Source: a virus
Taxonomy: Duplodnaviria > Heunggongvirae > Uroviricota > Caudoviricetes
DNA: 54,848 nucleotides
IMG/VR virus record: IMGVR_UViG_3300037346_000580
Location: 64,001 to 118,848 of that record
Reading direction: 5' to 3' (one strand)
Shown here: positions 6,823-12,899 of the stretch, piece by piece
Position numbering within the stretch: the first letter of the stretch is position 1
Layout: each line of letters begins with the position of its first letter
Translations under genes and position numbers: made by a program
Notes under the pieces: model-generated
Databases searched by the model: none
What the model saw: only the letters and a program-made list of their open reading frames with translations
Told to the model about the DNA's origin: nothing

Positions 6823-7222
6823 AATATCTGAAATAATAATTAATTTCACCCATACTAAACGGAAATCCCCCTCCAGTAACAACATCAATATAAACATAGA
6901 ATCTAATTTTATATAGATTCTCATTAAGTAATTCCTTTATAATCGGTCTAACAACTCTAAAGATTTCGTATGGTCCATTAAGATAGCTTTCACCTCTTAG
7001 CGTCATCTTTATTTCCTTCCTATAGGGAAGAGAATAGGGATCGGTTTTAACGATCCCTTGAATATCGATTCTTTTAAAAGTTTCGATAAGAGATTTCTCA
7101 ACTTTTCTTTCAAATTCCTGTATCTTCTCCATATACCTCTCCTCCGTGTGCTTTCTAGCTTCCCAGCCAACTAATGGATGAAGAATCGGAGCCTCTAGAT
7201 TACTTGGTATTTTTCTTTCCAT
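6812..7222 (-). CDS. hypothetical protein
   Basis: 136-aa ORF coupled to the clpP stop. Confidence 0.7.
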   Translation of the reverse strand: MERKIPSNLEAPILHPLVGWEARKHTEERYMEKIQEFERKVEKSLIETFKRIDIQGIVKTDPYSLPYRKEIKMTLRGESYLNGPYEIFRVVRPIIKELLNENLYKIRFYVYIDVVTGGGFPFSMGEINYYFRYYEH

Positions 7223-7899
7223 TATCTTACTCTTTTCCCCTTCACGATCTCATCAATGATTCCATAATCAACAGCCTCTTGAGCGCTCATCCAAAAATCT
7301 CTTTGTGAATCTTTCTTAACTTGTTCGGGATCTTTATCGCAGAAATCACCAAGTAAATCAAATAGAATGGAGTTTACCTCTTTCCATTCTTTCCAATCAA
7401 TCTCAGCATCCTGGATGTTTCCTCTAAATCCGCCACTTGATTGGTGAAGCATAACTTTACTAAATCTCAATGATGATCTCTTGCCCTTTGTTCCTGCACC
7501 CAAAAGAACAGATCCCATGGAAGCAGCCATACCTGTATTGATTGTAGCAATATCTGATTTGATATAGTCCATAACATCCACCATACTCAATCCACTTTTA
7601 ACAGATCCACCAGGTGAGTCGATGTGCATAATGATGTCTTTCTTTTCAACAGAATCCAAGAACATAAGTTGTGCTTGTACTATTGTTGACATCCTATCAT
7701 TAACTGGACCAGCAACCCAAAGAATTCTGTCCATCATAAGTCTATCAAAAACAGTCATCTGTGTTGCTCTTAATTCTCTCTCCTCGAGGATCATTGGTGT
7801 CATTGATGCCTCCACCTGTTTTGCATGATAGTCCATTGTTAATGAACTAATCCCTTTCTCACTCTGAGCGTACTTTCTAAATTCTGTTCCGTAATCCAT
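7222..7899 (-). CDS. clpP: ATP-dependent Clp protease proteolytic subunit
   Basis: MDRILW, IDSPGGSV, GMAASMGSVLL (catalytic Ser), VMLHQ (His), RDFWMSA.EAV.YGIIDEI. Confidence 0.95.
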   Translation of the reverse strand: MDYGTEFRKYAQSEKGISSLTMDYHAKQVEASMTPMILEERELRATQMTVFDRLMMDRILWVAGPVNDRMSTIVQAQLMFLDSVEKKDIIMHIDSPGGSVKSGLSMVDVMDYIKSDIATINTGMAASMGSVLLGAGTKGKRSSLRFSKVMLHQSSGGFRGNIQDAEIDWKEWKEVNSILFDLLGDFCDKDPEQVKKDSQRDFWMSAQEAVDYGIIDEIVKGKRVR

Positions 7900-7903
7900 G
7901 TTA

Positions 7904-8860
7904 TTAATTTTTATGTTGAAATTCTTTAAATTGATCTAATAGCGATTTTATATTCTCCCTGCCAGCAGGGTTCATTGAGTGAACCACATAATCAGGTAAT
8001 TCTTTCTTGTTGTCTATACAATAATCAACAAGCCATTTTGCACAATCCATACCGGTTTTCTCCATCTTCGGTGGGTTATGTACATATTCAGATCTTTCTA
8101 GATGCTTGGTCTTTTCGCTAACCGTTGATAATTTGTCCTCATATCTCCAAATAAATCCACCAGCAGAATTTCTATCACCTCTTGCACATTTTGCTATATT
8201 TGCATAATGAATACCAAGATGTCTTTCCGCCTCTGCAGTGCTACCATATACATTTAACACAAAACCATCAAGAGAATATTGGGTAACGCTTTTGCTATTT
8301 GCGTGGTTAGATCCGTATGCTGTAAAATTCCTATTCAGATTGTCATGTGAGTGTTTTATATTTTCACTTCCTGTATTCCATTCCAAATTTGTTACAAAAT
8401 TATTGCTTCTGTTTCCATCCTTATGGTTAACCTCGGGCTTATTATCAGAATTTGCTATATATGATTCAGCAACTAATCTATGTATGGATCTATGGTGATG
8501 CTTACCTCCACTTGTTAATATAACAAAACAAGTTCCTGTTTTTTTATTATATTGTACGGAAATCTCCCCTCCCGAGGTTCCTCTTGAAATACTATCCCTT
8601 CTAACCCTACCGTCACGGGAAACACTATAATCACCAAATCCAACAACTTTCATCCATTCTGGATAATAGTCTATATCGGAAAGATCATGATCAAATGATA
8701 TAAATTCAGGAATTCCCCTTTCTGTTATGGCTGAAATAAATTCTTCATAGTTTTTAACTATTACCCATTCCCACTTGGAATATATCCCTTCATTCCCCTT
8801 CATGTATGATATGCAATCATAAGGATGCCTGACGTCGTCCAAAAATAAATTATACTTCAT
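7904..8860 (-). CDS. cyclic-phosphate-processing receiver-domain protein with in-frame NUMOD4-HNH-NUMOD1 insertion
   Basis: host part LFLDDVR...ISFDHDL and KTGMDCAKWLV...VHSMNPAG; insert EWMKVVG..YSVSRDGRV, IHRLVA, VNHKDGNRSNN..TNLEW, VTQYSLDG..AGGFIWRY. Confidence 0.8.
   Translation of the reverse strand: MKYNLFLDDVRHPYDCISYMKGNEGIYSKWEWVIVKNYEEFISAITERGIPEFISFDHDLSDIDYYPEWMKVVGFGDYSVSRDGRVRRDSISRGTSGGEISVQYNKKTGTCFVILTSGGKHHHRSIHRLVAESYIANSDNKPEVNHKDGNRSNNFVTNLEWNTGSENIKHSHDNLNRNFTAYGSNHANSKSVTQYSLDGFVLNVYGSTAEAERHLGIHYANIAKCARGDRNSAGGFIWRYEDKLSTVSEKTKHLERSEYVHNPPKMEKTGMDCAKWLVDYCIDNKKELPDYVVHSMNPAGRENIKSLLDQFKEFQHKN
8135..8659 (-). mobile_element. HNH homing endonuclease coding segment inserted in frame
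   Basis: approx. aa 68-242 of the 7904..8860 ORF; boundaries approximate. Confidence 0.75.
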
Positions 8861-8955
8861 TTTATTTAATTTTTATAAAAGCATCGCCATTGCTGACAAG
8901 ACTATTGATTAGTAGATATTGTGATAATGAATATTTATGCCTACCCCTGCAAATA

Positions 8956-9099
8956 TCAATTGAATTTAATATTGTTCCTGCGGTTATTCTTTTTTTTATA
9001 TAGCGATTTATTAAATTCCAGTCTATATTCACGATTTTTGCCCAATATTGATTTATTAATATCTGATAGCATTCTTGACATGTTTTCTTTACCCTCCAT
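8956..9099 (-). CDS. small basic hypothetical protein (47 aa)
   Basis: MEGKENMSRMLSDINKSILGKNREYRLEFNKSLYKKKNNRRNNIKFN; fills the gap in gene orientation. Confidence 0.4.
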   Translation of the reverse strand: MEGKENMSRMLSDINKSILGKNREYRLEFNKSLYKKKNNRRNNIKFN

Positions 9100-9101
9100 C
9101 T

Positions 9102-9485
9102 CTATAATGTTATATTAAATCTTTCTTTCATTGCAGCCATTGTTTCTTCCGGAACATTATGTTCGTTTACTCCACCGTGTCGGTTTTCTACTATTAACGA
9201 AAATACAGTATAGCCCAACTCCTCAGCGAGAATATAGTATGCTTCCATCTCCCATTCTTGTGTAAATGTATTGGAAACAATAACTTTAAGTCCCCATTCC
9301 ATTGCTCTTCCGCATTCAAATTGACACCACTCATGTGCATCTTTAACTTTTTCTGGCTTCCAATCATATATTCCATCCTTATTAACATGATACATATCGG
9401 CTTCGAGATGGGTTCCACCTATTGACACAGACAGTGTAGATTTTCCTGCTCCTGGTAATCCTCTTAATAAAAATAACTCCTTCAT
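9102..9485 (-). CDS. P-loop kinase, polynucleotide-kinase-like (AAA_33 type)
   Basis: LLRGLPGAGKST, EAD, VIVSNTF, HNVPEE. Confidence 0.8.
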   Translation of the reverse strand: MKELFLLRGLPGAGKSTLSVSIGGTHLEADMYHVNKDGIYDWKPEKVKDAHEWCQFECGRAMEWGLKVIVSNTFTQEWEMEAYYILAEELGYTVFSLIVENRHGGVNEHNVPEETMAAMKERFNITL

Positions 9486-9784
9486 ATCGGTTCTCCTTTT
9501 TCAAGTTCTTCTTTCCGGTTAAGAAGATCCAGTTCTTTTAATATCTTGACTTTCCATTCTTTCTTAGTTGTTCGATTATCTGTACATGACATGTTTATTT
9601 TGAATGCAAGCTTTGGAACCTCAATCTGAACGGTGGTACCAAAGATTTTTAAGATATCACACCAGCCAGATTTTACCCTTTTAGTTACGATCTCTGTTCC
9701 CTCGTAGAATTCCGTCCATTCCCACTCTTCATCACCCATCAGCTGGTACTTAAGTACCCTTCCATCTATATTAATTTCCTTCAT
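9482..9784 (-). CDS. hypothetical protein
   Basis: 100-aa coupled ORF. Confidence 0.7.
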   Translation of the reverse strand: MKEINIDGRVLKYQLMGDEEWEWTEFYEGTEIVTKRVKSGWCDILKIFGTTVQIEVPKLAFKINMSCTDNRTTKKEWKVKILKELDLLNRKEELEKGEPI

Positions 9785-10428
9785 TATTCTCCGTCCGTAT
9801 GATGATCCTTTGGTAATGATAAGTGCATTTTAGGTCTTCCTTCCAATGCCTTAAGTATTTCGTTCAATGAATATGGCTTGTAGTTATTACCATCTACGCC
9901 AACATCCATTGCTCTACCTTTGTGTATTTTTAAATGGCCAGGTAAATGAACATGACCATGGAGATGCTGATATCCCTTTCCGAGTCCATCCCAGCTAGCT
10001 ATTGGAAAATGACAACATTCGAATGTGTATTTCTTAGTTTCCTTACCCTGAGGAACACGAAGTTCAATTGTTTCAAGTTTATTGACACTAGCAAAAAGAT
10101 CCCTTACATTTTCTTTGTTGTTAGCTATATGGTGATCATGGTTACCTAAAAATAAATGAATAGTTTTACAATTTATTCTATTTCTGAATTCAGATATTGA
10201 TTCTATTCCGCCAAAGCTCCAGTCGCCCAGATGTATTAATATATCATTCTCACCCACTGCTGCATTAAACTCGTATACTAATCTATCATTCATTTCATTC
10301 AAAGAATTGAATTTTCTGGTTCCTCTTCCCTCCGGCCACTGTGATGTAGCACTGCATATATTACTGTGATTATAGTGAGAATCGCTGGTGAAGAATATCT
10401 TCTGATGCCCTTGCAATATTATTTTCAT
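9784..10428 (-). CDS. calcineurin-like metallophosphoesterase
   Basis: FTSDSHYNH, LGDWSFG, LGNHD, CHFP, HLHGHVH, DVGVD. Confidence 0.9.
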   Translation of the reverse strand: MKIILQGHQKIFFTSDSHYNHSNICSATSQWPEGRGTRKFNSLNEMNDRLVYEFNAAVGENDILIHLGDWSFGGIESISEFRNRINCKTIHLFLGNHDHHIANNKENVRDLFASVNKLETIELRVPQGKETKKYTFECCHFPIASWDGLGKGYQHLHGHVHLPGHLKIHKGRAMDVGVDGNNYKPYSLNEILKALEGRPKMHLSLPKDHHTDGE

Positions 10429-11485: not shown

Positions 11486-11778
11486 TTCTTATTTTTAAAT
11501 AATCTTGTTATTCTTGCCCGCAATGTATAATATTCTGGACTTTCCATCCTTCTGACGAAATCGATTTTTTCGGTGTGTTTCAGATCATCGAATCCATACC
11601 AATTTTTTATATAACTAATAGATTCATTTAATCCAGAAACCTCCGTTCTTTTAGCTACTAGTTTTATGAATTCGTTAGGAACAATATTTGTGTAATTACA
11701 TAAAGTTTCTATTTTGGAATTACTAATCTTATTAGTTCTTTTTTGGTTTAATAAAAAGAATGGTGCTGGTGTTATCAT
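11473..11778 (-). CDS. hypothetical protein
   Basis: 101-aa coupled ORF. Confidence 0.55.
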   Translation of the reverse strand: MITPAPFFLLNQKRTNKISNSKIETLCNYTNIVPNEFIKLVAKRTEVSGLNESISYIKNWYGFDDLKHTEKIDFVRRMESPEYYTLRARITRLFKNKKWKK

Positions 11779-12899
11779 AATTTATTTCTATTTGTTGAAT
11801 AGTTAGTCCAAAATGGTTTTTCATAATCAGGTCTGATCTGATTCCATATTGATCTTGAATAGTCAGAATTTGTGTGATGTGCTAGTAGATATCCACTCAA
11901 TCTATGATGCTTAACAAGACCAAAAAACTCCTTATTATATGCTTTAAGGATCGGAGAATTTCTATCTTCTCTATCTGTTTCTGAAGGCATCTGACTTTTA
12001 ACCTTCTTAATTATAAGTTTATATTCAGCTTTTACTGTTGTATCTATGAAATTAAAATTTGATTTCAGATCATTCTCAATATTAGTAACCCAGACATCAT
12101 ATTCATCAGGTACGTCAATCATTCTTGATCTATAATCGGTACCTTCTCTTAAACATTCCCATATATCCAAATTTGAGAATCTAGTTAAAACTCCATGTAG
12201 TCTAACATATTCCTCGCCCTTGGCCTTAACCCTTGTACCATCAGAGAATCTTATAACGAATCCCTCCTGATTGTCGCATATTAGCGATTTTATTTTTTTA
12301 AGATCTTTTATGCCATCATATCTTTTAGCACATTCAAATCCGGTTCTTTCAGCAATAGCAATTAACTCATTATATGTGGTTTCCCTTCCGTTATCGTTTT
12401 TAAACGCACCAAGAAGAACTAATTTTTCTTCATCACCATAGGAACAAACAATTCTATTCTTTGGATATAGGATCTCAAAAAGAAAAGTGAATTTCTCAGA
12501 GAAAACATCCTTATAAGTTTCATTTCTTTTTAATATCTCCTGTGCATAAATAGCAACATCTGAATAAAAAGATCCTTGTGTTGCCAAATGCCATTCGTCC
12601 ATATAATTGAAAAGTATCCCTAATGATCCATCAAGTTTCTCAAAAACTTCAAATGGAAGATTTGGAAAATTGTCCGACTCTATATTGAAAAATTTCGGAA
12701 ACGTTTTAGCAACAACATTTCCTTCATCATCCAGAACAGTCCCTCTCATATTCATAGTAACATCGTCCCAATTCCATTCGAATTGACAATTACGAGAATA
12801 TTTATAAATAGCTATTGGAAGCTCCTTGTGCTCACATTTATCAAGCAATCCCTTTGCTACATATTCATTGATTGTTTCAATATTGTATCTCATTTTCAT
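11775..12899 (-). CDS. RNA ligase, T4 Rnl1 family
   Basis: KTFPKFFN, motif I EKLDGSLGI, FEIL, motif IV EGFVIRF, motif V KAKGEEY. Confidence 0.9.
   Translation of the reverse strand: MKMRYNIETINEYVAKGLLDKCEHKELPIAIYKYSRNCQFEWNWDDVTMNMRGTVLDDEGNVVAKTFPKFFNIESDNFPNLPFEVFEKLDGSLGILFNYMDEWHLATQGSFYSDVAIYAQEILKRNETYKDVFSEKFTFLFEILYPKNRIVCSYGDEEKLVLLGAFKNDNGRETTYNELIAIAERTGFECAKRYDGIKDLKKIKSLICDNQEGFVIRFSDGTRVKAKGEEYVRLHGVLTRFSNLDIWECLREGTDYRSRMIDVPDEYDVWVTNIENDLKSNFNFIDTTVKAEYKLIIKKVKSQMPSETDREDRNSPILKAYNKEFFGLVKHHRLSGYLLAHHTNSDYSRSIWNQIRPDYEKPFWTNYSTNRNKL

Follow-up and report, generated by a model that had tools for sequence, protein, structure and literature searches.

An I-HmuI-like HNH endonuclease carried in frame inside a phage cREC protein, with no recognizable intron or intein

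The gene at 7904..8860 on the minus strand of a 54,848-nucleotide stretch of tailed-phage DNA (IMG/VR record IMGVR_UViG_3300037346_000580, positions 64,001 to 118,848; hereafter, the window) raises the question of how a complete homing endonuclease can reside within the coding sequence of another protein without being spliced out. Homing endonuclease genes (HEGs) are classically found either between genes or within self-splicing introns or inteins, by which the host gene is spared. In the window, an HNH endonuclease related to I-HmuI interrupts a receiver-like enzyme domain, cREC, within a single open reading frame (ORF) of 318 codons plus a stop. The product, cREC::HNH fusion protein P0001, is recovered at 100% identity and without internal stops from the full 118.8-kb virus record, which is judged to be ~40% complete; since contigs of relatives reach 434 kb, the window virus is taken to be a jumbo phage. 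We conclude that the insert is probably an actively or recently homing endonuclease that is expressed as a domain of its host protein. The existence of near-identical phages without the insert indicates an endonuclease that, as judged from these alleles, would still be spreading.

The host is recognizable as a cREC, in keeping with the original prediction of a receiver-domain protein. Its match to the Pfam family cREC_REC (PF20274; 76.2 bits versus a cut-off of 27) falls into two stretches, residues 3-61 and the C-terminal ~50 residues, and phrog_1479 in PHROGs is also matched in two stretches, with the HNH endonuclease family phrog_59 matched at 7.6e-36. By comparison, cREC_REC profile positions 1-87 are matched in one stretch in the insert-free allele L013. 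The N-terminal half (8681..8860, on the minus strand like every window feature described here; codons 1-60) contains β1 (LFLDD), α1, β2, α2, and β3 (ISFDHDL) and covers profile positions 1-43. The C-terminal half (7907..8062; codons 267-318) constitutes the second cREC_REC stretch and contains the EKTGMDCAKWL helix, the VHSMNPAG strand and its loop, and the last helix. The domain is thus split after FDHDL (codons 56-60) and resumes at EKTG (codons 267-270). The features of a receiver-like protein are kept, namely the pair of Asp residues after β1 and the Asp after β3: D8, D9, and R11 are invariant across 53 insert-bearing homologues, and F56-L60, including D57, H58, and D59, are at least 90% conserved in the same set. 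The 'cyclic-phosphate-processing receiver' was predicted by Iyer, Burroughs, Aravind et al. to open 2′,3′-cyclic phosphate RNA ends or cyclic ADP-ribose (ADPr) derivatives (PMC7824862, PMC9503650). The family is experimentally uncharacterized, its cyclic-phosphate phosphoesterase activity being a prediction, and its gene neighborhoods are those of RNA repair or NAD-ADPr processing, never of histidine kinases (PMC9503650). The window gene has a neighborhood of this type, with an Rnl1 ligase, an AAA_33 kinase, and a putative metallophosphoesterase less than 5 kb away.

The element that splits this domain (8063..8680; codons 61-266) is a complete I-HmuI-like homing endonuclease that has neither a start nor a stop of its own and takes the place of a native loop of ~22 codons. 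The original prediction placed ~175 codons of NUMOD4-HNH-NUMOD1 between DHDL and KTG; the position and the modules hold, and the length is to be corrected to ~206 codons from motif to motif (DHDL to EKTG), of which ~178 make up the endonuclease core. NUMOD4 (8513..8659; codons 68-116) scores 18.3 bits in the window protein, below the 23.4-bit Pfam cut-off, is modeled with a predicted local distance difference test score (pLDDT) of 75-93, and is present in most homologues according to precomputed Pfam lists. It is followed by the HNH_3 catalytic module (8360..8485; codons 126-167), at 30.4 bits versus a cut-off of 24.8, and by a NUMOD1/I-HmuI NUMOD-like helix-turn-helix DNA-binding module (8147..8293; codons 190-238; pLDDT 89-96), which is above its Pfam cut-off and in which NUMOD1 spans residues 190-226 and the I-HmuI NUMOD-like domain residues 203-238. 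A C-terminal tail (8063..8125; codons 246-266), ending in ...HLERSEYVHNPPKM, forms a low-confidence linker back into cREC (pLDDT 58-73); we regard it as part of the element and not of the native loop because an equivalent '...FFIP' tail accompanies the HNH at a second insertion site in L010, discussed below. This module order comes with full-length similarity to I-HmuI, which phmmer aligns (1u3e, residues 2-171 of 174) at E 5e-13 and 31-32% identity, and free-standing HNH proteins of ~180 aa also match the insert along their whole length. Residues N145, H146, N158, N167, and H170 are invariant in the 53 homologues and line up with the VDHKDGN...NLRW...N motif of I-HmuI, so that the predicted catalytic residues of the ββα-metal motif (the His general base and the Asn residues) appear to be intact. 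No second HNH_3 match, and hence no paralogue, was found in the 118.8-kb record.

We found no recognizable splicing machinery in or around the element. The absence of a stop, of a noncoding RNA core, and of a Hint domain had been noted from the sequence at the outset, and all three observations stand: the gene is a single 318-aa ORF; an Rfam scan by E-value of 7000-9800 on both strands returned no intron and only a chance snoRNA match (E 2.6), with the proviso that a very divergent intron core could escape such a scan; and the window protein matches no Hint or intein family in Pfam even at E ≤ 1. When the two cREC halves were defined by hidden Markov models on 183 family members, the length of the loop between them proved to be bimodal, with 7-35 residues in 126 sequences and 194-210 in the other 57, and the reading frame is open across both junctions in 57 of these 57 copies. 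An open frame together with codon-level constraint in the host frame is what would be expected if the whole ORF were translated, and an intron would require neither. A group I or group II intron was rejected on the negative Rfam scan combined with a frame that is continuous in every copy and under purifying selection in the host frame. The junctions are equally uninviting for an intein. Among the 57 insert-bearing homologues, the first residue after DHDL is Gly in 25, Ser in 12, and Glu, Ala, or others in the remainder; the last insert residue is variable and is Asn in only three; and position +1 is occupied by Glu in 51 copies and by Cys, Ser, or Thr in none. NUMOD4 begins 4-9 residues past DHDL (8 in the window), so close that there is no room for intein N-terminal blocks. 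The VHN noticed originally, and said to be followed by Pro, does lie in a YVHNPP sequence at residues 259-264; VHN is limited to one subclade, with PP next to it. Protein splicing is not expected from such junctions, and an intein is ruled out by the missing Hint domain and the incompatible junction residues, with homology to I-HmuI filling the insert.

Three other arrangements were considered and rejected. An internal start from which a separate endonuclease could be made is not supported by codon 70, whose Met is not conserved (EWM in the window; EWL, EWT, or IWK in homologues). A free-standing HEG would not lack both a conserved start and a stop, as the insert does and as its relative P0202 in L090, which has both, does not. 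A hidden HNH of the type described for the ShiLan domain, to which we return below, is not what is found, because the HNH stands in the host frame and the other frames contain only short ORFs of 43-86 aa.

An AlphaFold2 model of the fusion, built on 53 homologues as one of the checks proposed for this locus, shows how the two proteins may coexist. The mean pLDDT is 87, with 91-98 in the cREC halves and confident endonuclease modules, and confidence is low in three linkers only (residues 61-70, 171-190, and 250-270). The sole strong Foldseek match is I-HmuI (1u3e, E 2.9e-12), which aligns over model residues 67-244 with Z 14.6 in VIA-align; many receiver (REC) domains align across model residues 1..310 with Z 8-9.3, a root-mean-square deviation of 2.4-3.1 Å, and 88-99 residues aligned. 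In this model, the two cREC halves are predicted to pack as one receiver-like fold from which the endonuclease is an excursion out of the β3-α3 loop.

Comparison with homologues shows that the insert is a facultative part of the gene. A database search returned ~55 clusters with the same architecture as P0001, at 82% down to 41% identity, and the fusion is not a product of chance or assembly because 57 proteins from different metagenomes share the insert position. Used as a query against shorter proteins, the C-terminal cREC half retrieved the insert-free proteins P0121, P0122, and P0125, of ~136 aa and 88-96% identical, of which P0121 is 96% identical to the C-terminal half of the window protein and lies in the same gene order (cREC, a 225-aa ClpP, a 136-aa ORF, an 87-aa ORF, and an SLT transglycosylase). 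The insert-free alleles L013 and L014 match the window at the other end, with 95% protein and 91% DNA identity in the N-terminal half and a diverged C-terminal half. Alignment with such homologues fixes the boundaries of the insert between DHDL and EKTG, and the original prediction of a splice-free invasion of a tolerant loop is supported by the variable loop of 7-35 residues that insert-free homologues have where the window protein has ~205. Insert-free alleles, some of them near-identical, are the majority, so that the HNH is far from being carried by all homologues: IMG/VR yielded 522 relatives, and only 7 of the best 80 loci among them have an insert. In a tblastn search of 50,697 GenBank phages, the fusion was absent; only free HNH genes covered the insert, and no record covered at least 80% of the protein. 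Within 7700-9100, both cREC halves are also matched by contigs from other freshwater metagenomes, which lack 637-639 nt (8044/8047 to 8684/8685); they represent insert-free relatives from other habitats, 80-95% alike, and are therefore uninformative on splicing.

One indication of mobility comes from the ancestry of the window allele on either side of the insert. The upstream flank and the N-terminal half (9101-8681) have 90-91% DNA identity to L013, 69-73% to L086/L087, and, in the N-terminal half, 69-70% to L015/L002; the insert (8680-8063) has 84-85% identity to L086/L087 and no match in L013 or L015/L002; and the C-terminal half with ClpP (8062-7222) has 77-80% identity to L013, 81-92% to L086/L087, and 89-93% to L015/L002. 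Over 9100-8681, the identity to L013 is 90.5%, as against 71-74% in the rest of the L013 locus, and the N-terminal half is only 69-73% identical to relatives other than L013/L014. The upstream flank (8861..9101), a candidate co-conversion tract, thus forms together with the N-terminal half a 420-bp L013-like patch inside an L015/L002-like backbone. Homology to L015, L002, L016, L017, and L018 begins exactly at 8062, and insert-free alleles have no DNA homology to the window between the DHDL and EKTG codons. No single insert-free allele matches both halves at 95-96%, and the window allele is therefore a mosaic with its junctions at the insert; both of its ancestry switches fall at the insert ends.

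The same boundaries recur in other comparisons. The cleanest case is that of the insert-bearing L086 (P0002) and the insert-free L015, which differ very little in the N-terminal half as far as TTTGATCA and, beginning exactly at the EKTG codon, share 99.7% identity over 1473 bp. In three pairs of insert-bearing and insert-free partners (the window and L013, L086 and L015, and L087 and L017), the alleles match up to the DHDL codons, after which the window, L086, and L087 share the element start TCC GAT ATA GAY TAT TAT CCA GAA TGG... (SDIDYYPEW) and run together to GAG AAG AC (EKT), where partner-specific sequence returns. The element ends are identical in the three insert-bearing alleles despite their different flanks, and the two most conserved DNA stretches of the gene flank the element, making it plausible that these stretches serve as homology arms for repair. 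As expected of a mobile element, the insert is sporadic among otherwise similar alleles and is accompanied by co-conversion of its flanks. The phage genomes are highly mosaic here, with further insertions or deletions next to the gene.

Phylogenies of host and insert point in the same direction. In the extein tree (183 sequences, 105 columns, insert columns excluded), which like the insert tree comes from a quick search on a short alignment, insert-bearing and insert-free alleles interleave, and the insert label requires 37 changes, at least six of them forced by branches with a Shimodaira-Hasegawa-like approximate likelihood ratio test (SH-aLRT) value of at least 95; several tip pairs join one allele of each state, for example P0005 with L021 (95). 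The DNA pairs formed by the window, L086, and L087 with their insert-free partners are firmer evidence than this tree. The insert tree contains the 57 inserts at this site, those at the second site, and 53 free-standing HNH proteins, and it places all cREC-resident HNHs on one side of a branch with SH-aLRT 96-99. By the Nei-Gojobori method on the four closest genomes (178-199 codons), the insert has a ratio of nonsynonymous to synonymous change (dN/dS) of 0.05-0.16 and is under purifying selection in the host frame. Its synonymous difference is below that of its own exteins in five of six pairs (permutation p ≤ 0.006), which fits an element that moved between diverged alleles.

The insert lineage is not confined to one position. 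In L010-L012 (L010:3001-4092, L012:2962-4098), a related NUMOD4-HNH-NUMOD1 sits in frame in a second cREC loop, between helix α3 and strand β4, at cREC profile position ~61 versus 43 for the first site, after ...CARWLVEHCQKRLLYT and before ...CCHSHNPVG. The insert there ends in a C-terminal '...FFIP' tail of the kind also seen in the first-site inserts of L006 and L008. Of the free-standing relatives, the closest that was found, P0202 (213 aa, 50% identity), is encoded immediately past the 3′ end of an intact cREC gene (130 aa), with an ATG that overlaps the stop of that gene (L090:1537-2563; …TATACTATGGATGAA…), and is nested among the cREC residents in the insert tree, in a set of 25 residents plus P0202 with SH-aLRT 95. 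Three further free-standing relatives with 41-45% identity, P0074, P0095, and P0100, have no cREC neighbor and occur in unrelated contexts; a cREC neighbor is therefore peculiar to P0202, the nearest of these relatives. The picture is of a single endonuclease lineage bound to a single target gene and flexible in its placement, as expected of a parasite and not of a fixed module. A representative search with the insert as the only query found no second host gene among the best 150 matches, which is no proof that none exists. That search was dominated by proteins with 2-13 tandem HNH copies, and the longer matches that were checked (385-552 aa) contain two or three tandem HNH_3 copies by Pfam and are not insertions into other domains. 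Its highest-ranking matches, P0167, P0168, and P0222, are 1044-1791 aa long and match in 12-13 HNH/NUMOD stretches.

The original prediction left the choice between an uncommon homing strategy and a domesticated nuclease-phosphoesterase. We favor homing because the breakpoints lie at the insert ends, the allele states interleave, a single HNH clade occurs both at the second site and beside cREC, and the insert is under purifying selection. The alternative, in which the HNH/NUMOD modules were recruited long ago beside the cREC phosphoesterase and are kept for the benefit of the phage, perhaps as a nucleic-acid-binding or nicking arm of an RNA-repair or counter-defense system, and are no longer selfish, strikes us as unlikely. 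It would account for the persistence of the architecture over wide divergence (82% to 41% identity in at least 57 proteins), the strong purifying selection on both parts, the strict association of the HNH lineage with cREC, and the location of the gene within the Rnl1/kinase/phosphoesterase cluster, but it sits poorly with an insert-free majority that includes near-isogenic partners of insert-bearing phages, with the interleaving of allele states on the extein tree, with recombination breakpoints that coincide with the element ends, and with the presence of the lineage at another loop and as a gene beside cREC, which suits a parasite better than a fixed module. About half as credible is a single past invasion whose product is now inactive and is kept by tolerance of the loop, the polymorphism being due to ordinary phage recombination and losses. 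HEGs commonly decay after fixation in the course of the homing cycle, and the mosaicism of these genomes and the other indels by the gene would be compatible with such a history, but an inactive remnant would show relaxed constraint, and the dN/dS values over 178-199 codons, the HNH catalytic residues invariant in 53 sequences, and the lack of a frameshift or stop in any of 57 copies speak against it. Least probable of all is that an unconventional intron, ribosomal bypass, a noncanonical intein, or proteolytic excision leaves a mature cREC without the insert, since the potential interference of an inert 205-residue domain beside the predicted catalytic DHD motif, the YVHN motif near the C-terminal junction in the subclade of the window, and the first suspicion of an odd intein in the related ShiLan case (PMC11855218) are countered by the absence of any Rfam intron or Pfam Hint domain, by a NUMOD4 that begins 8 residues past DHDL and leaves no space for intein N-terminal blocks, by variable junction residues with Glu at +1 and a VHN that is confined to one subclade and followed by PP, by a frame that is open in 57 diverged sequences and constrained as translation of a fusion predicts, and by native loops that already measure 7-35 residues at this site.

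If the element is a homing endonuclease living as a protein domain, its cycle would probably proceed as follows. The element would be expressed from the promoter and ribosome-binding site of the host gene, as an internal domain of the host protein, and the receiver-like fold would form around it, with the endonuclease tethered by flexible linkers; that the fold can do so is suggested by the β3-α3 loop, which is naturally long and variable. In a mixed infection, the I-HmuI-like module would recognize the insert-free cREC DNA of related phages and nick or cut it. I-HmuI itself is a nicking enzyme. Recombinational repair from an insert-bearing genome would then transfer the element along with more or less of its flanks, the FDHDL and EKTGMDCAKW codons providing the homology arms. 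Flank co-conversion would vary from case to case, extending over 420 bp upstream in the window allele and hardly at all in L086. We lean toward, and hold with less assurance than homing itself, the broader view that an I-HmuI-like lineage without splicing or expression signals of its own spreads as a protein domain, in frame in permissive loops (two in cREC), and is able to revert to a free-standing gene, which would amount to a third way of life for HEGs and provide a natural example of nested nuclease domains. In Cas9, an HNH domain is nested within RuvC; the likeness to the HNH nested in cREC is an analogy only.

Several observations weigh against active homing as an expressed fusion. The case is built on comparing metagenomic contigs, and expression as an unspliced fusion is what the sequence predicts; no RNA run was found to contain this stretch, and the only sequencing run that does is a salt-lake metagenome, a possible source of the virus. 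The presence/absence polymorphism cannot by itself separate gain of the element from its loss by reverse gene conversion, and among the contigs of four runs that were compared, those of the salt-lake sample show the insert-bearing form only. The extein tree rests on 105 columns, and most of its 37 changes are soft. In the three closest genomes, the synonymous divergence of the insert is about that of the neighboring ClpP, so the excess divergence may lie in shuffled exteins and not in recent spread of the insert; the insert is clearly younger than the host gene only in comparisons with the more distant L088. The window protein has Asn at the position of D74 of I-HmuI, which is reportedly a metal ligand in the 1U3E structure. 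Lastly, the insert lies directly after the predicted catalytic DHD motif, and any cREC activity of the fusion could be impaired.

How the element relates to known systems is best seen by comparing it first with its own family. I-HmuI, the endonuclease of the DNA-polymerase intron of Bacillus phage SPO1 (PDB 1U3E), has the same module order, the same HNH motif, and end-to-end homology, but it is a separate ORF in a self-splicing group I intron, whereas the insert is an internal domain of the host protein without start, stop, or intron. The enzyme is an ordinary I-HmuI/NUMOD HNH member, and the host is an ordinary cREC; the arrangement is the unusual part. Among published cases, the nearest is the ShiLan domain of actinobacteriophage DNA methylases (Arsenault, Gosselin and Gogarten 2025, PMC11855218). 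As in cREC, the host frame is open, no intron or intein is detectable, the disjunct distribution suggests active homing, an HNH is involved, and the insert is predicted to loop out of the host fold (PMC11855218). In ShiLan, however, the HNH is encoded by an overlapping ORF hidden in another frame, which begins with its own GTG and ends with its own TAA, and what the host frame encodes is a hairpin that is not a nuclease (PMC11855218), whereas in cREC the endonuclease itself is in the host frame, which removes the open translation question of ShiLan; the host gene (methylase versus cREC), the phage group, and the HNH subfamily all differ as well. A lone in-frame LAGLIDADG in the same actinobacteriophage methylase resembles the cREC insert in having no detectable intein or intron (PMC11855218, section 1.2), but it is not an HNH and is reported to be vertically inherited, forming one group in the phylogeny (PMC11855218), in contrast to the polymorphism, mosaic flanks, and several positions of the cREC insert.

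Other systems share single features with the cREC insert. Free-standing phage HEGs, such as T4 mobE and the Seg and Mob families, home without an intron or intein and co-convert flanking markers, as the cREC insert appears to do, but they are ORFs of their own between genes or split the host into two polypeptides, whereas the cREC host stays one ORF. The target gene is reportedly split in the nrdA-mobE 'genes in pieces' of Aeromonas phage Aeh1. In phages, recombination boundaries are reported to be marked by nuclease genes (PMC10448857). Inteins with HNH or LAGLIDADG endonucleases are, like the cREC insert, in frame at a conserved site by active-site residues and translated with the host; they have a Hint domain and nucleophilic junction residues, and the cREC insert has neither. 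LAGLIDADG ORFs joined in frame to the mitochondrial rps3 gene of Ophiostoma and its relatives were reportedly described by Sethuraman et al. in 2009. In 'core creep', intron ORFs are fused to upstream exons (PMC8393795). In both of these, HEGs borrow host expression signals by in-frame fusion, as proposed here, but the fusions are organellar, involve LAGLIDADG enzymes, and are mostly terminal or within introns, none being internal to a loop of a small phage enzyme domain. The literature searched, mostly outside subscription journals, yielded no in-frame, intein-less I-HmuI-type endonuclease with signs of ongoing mobility, and the two cREC papers make no mention of an in-frame HNH insert (PMC7824862, PMC9503650). 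In-frame, splice-free residence is a rarely documented way for selfish endonucleases to live.

The significance of the arrangement is that a tolerant loop appears to suffice for a full endonuclease, translated along with its host, to spare the host gene. If this is correct, splicing is dispensable for invading a coding sequence, and the host's own signals solve the expression problem that was left open for ShiLan. The same reading would identify natural permissive insertion sites in a small enzyme fold and offer a living model of how nested nuclease domains arise. L086 and L015 make up a tractable near-isogenic allele pair for the study of homing. The phage RNA-repair cluster in which cREC lies is a hot spot for selfish elements, with a GIY-YIG gene, an Rnl1 intein, and the cREC insert in close relatives.

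Downstream of the window gene lies a ClpP-family protease (7222..7899), assigned by Pfam, which is syntenic downstream of cREC in both insert-bearing and insert-free relatives (L002, L086, and L087). Upstream are the P-loop AAA_33 kinase, polynucleotide kinase-like by Pfam (9102..9485); the putative calcineurin-like metallophosphoesterase (9784..10428), with HxxGDxxxxG...GNHD motifs in its translation; and the T4 Rnl1-type RNA ligase (11775..12899; RNA_lig_T4_1, 54 bits in Pfam). The metallophosphoesterase protein of the window itself has no Pfam match, and its orthologue in L002 has a weak Metallophos match. Between the kinase gene and the cREC start, the window has 240 bp (8861-9101) with only small ORFs of 56 and 47 aa; the equivalent region of L002, L086, and L087 contains ORFs of 246 and 168 aa, a quite different gene content. 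In L086, the Rnl1-type RNA ligase (L086:225-1187) carries a Pfam Intein_splicing match, which the window ligase (374 aa) does not; this match marks a second selfish element in the same gene cluster. L015 has a free-standing GIY-YIG (SegE-like) endonuclease of 268 aa (L015:1625-2431) directly upstream of its insert-free cREC and overlapping the cREC start, and the ~1.2-kb segment that holds this gene is missing from the near-isogenic L086. In L002, the variable segment upstream of the insert-free cREC contains a 290-aa ORF (L002:3181-4053) with weak NUMOD3 and TnsA-like N-terminal matches, which may be an endonuclease.

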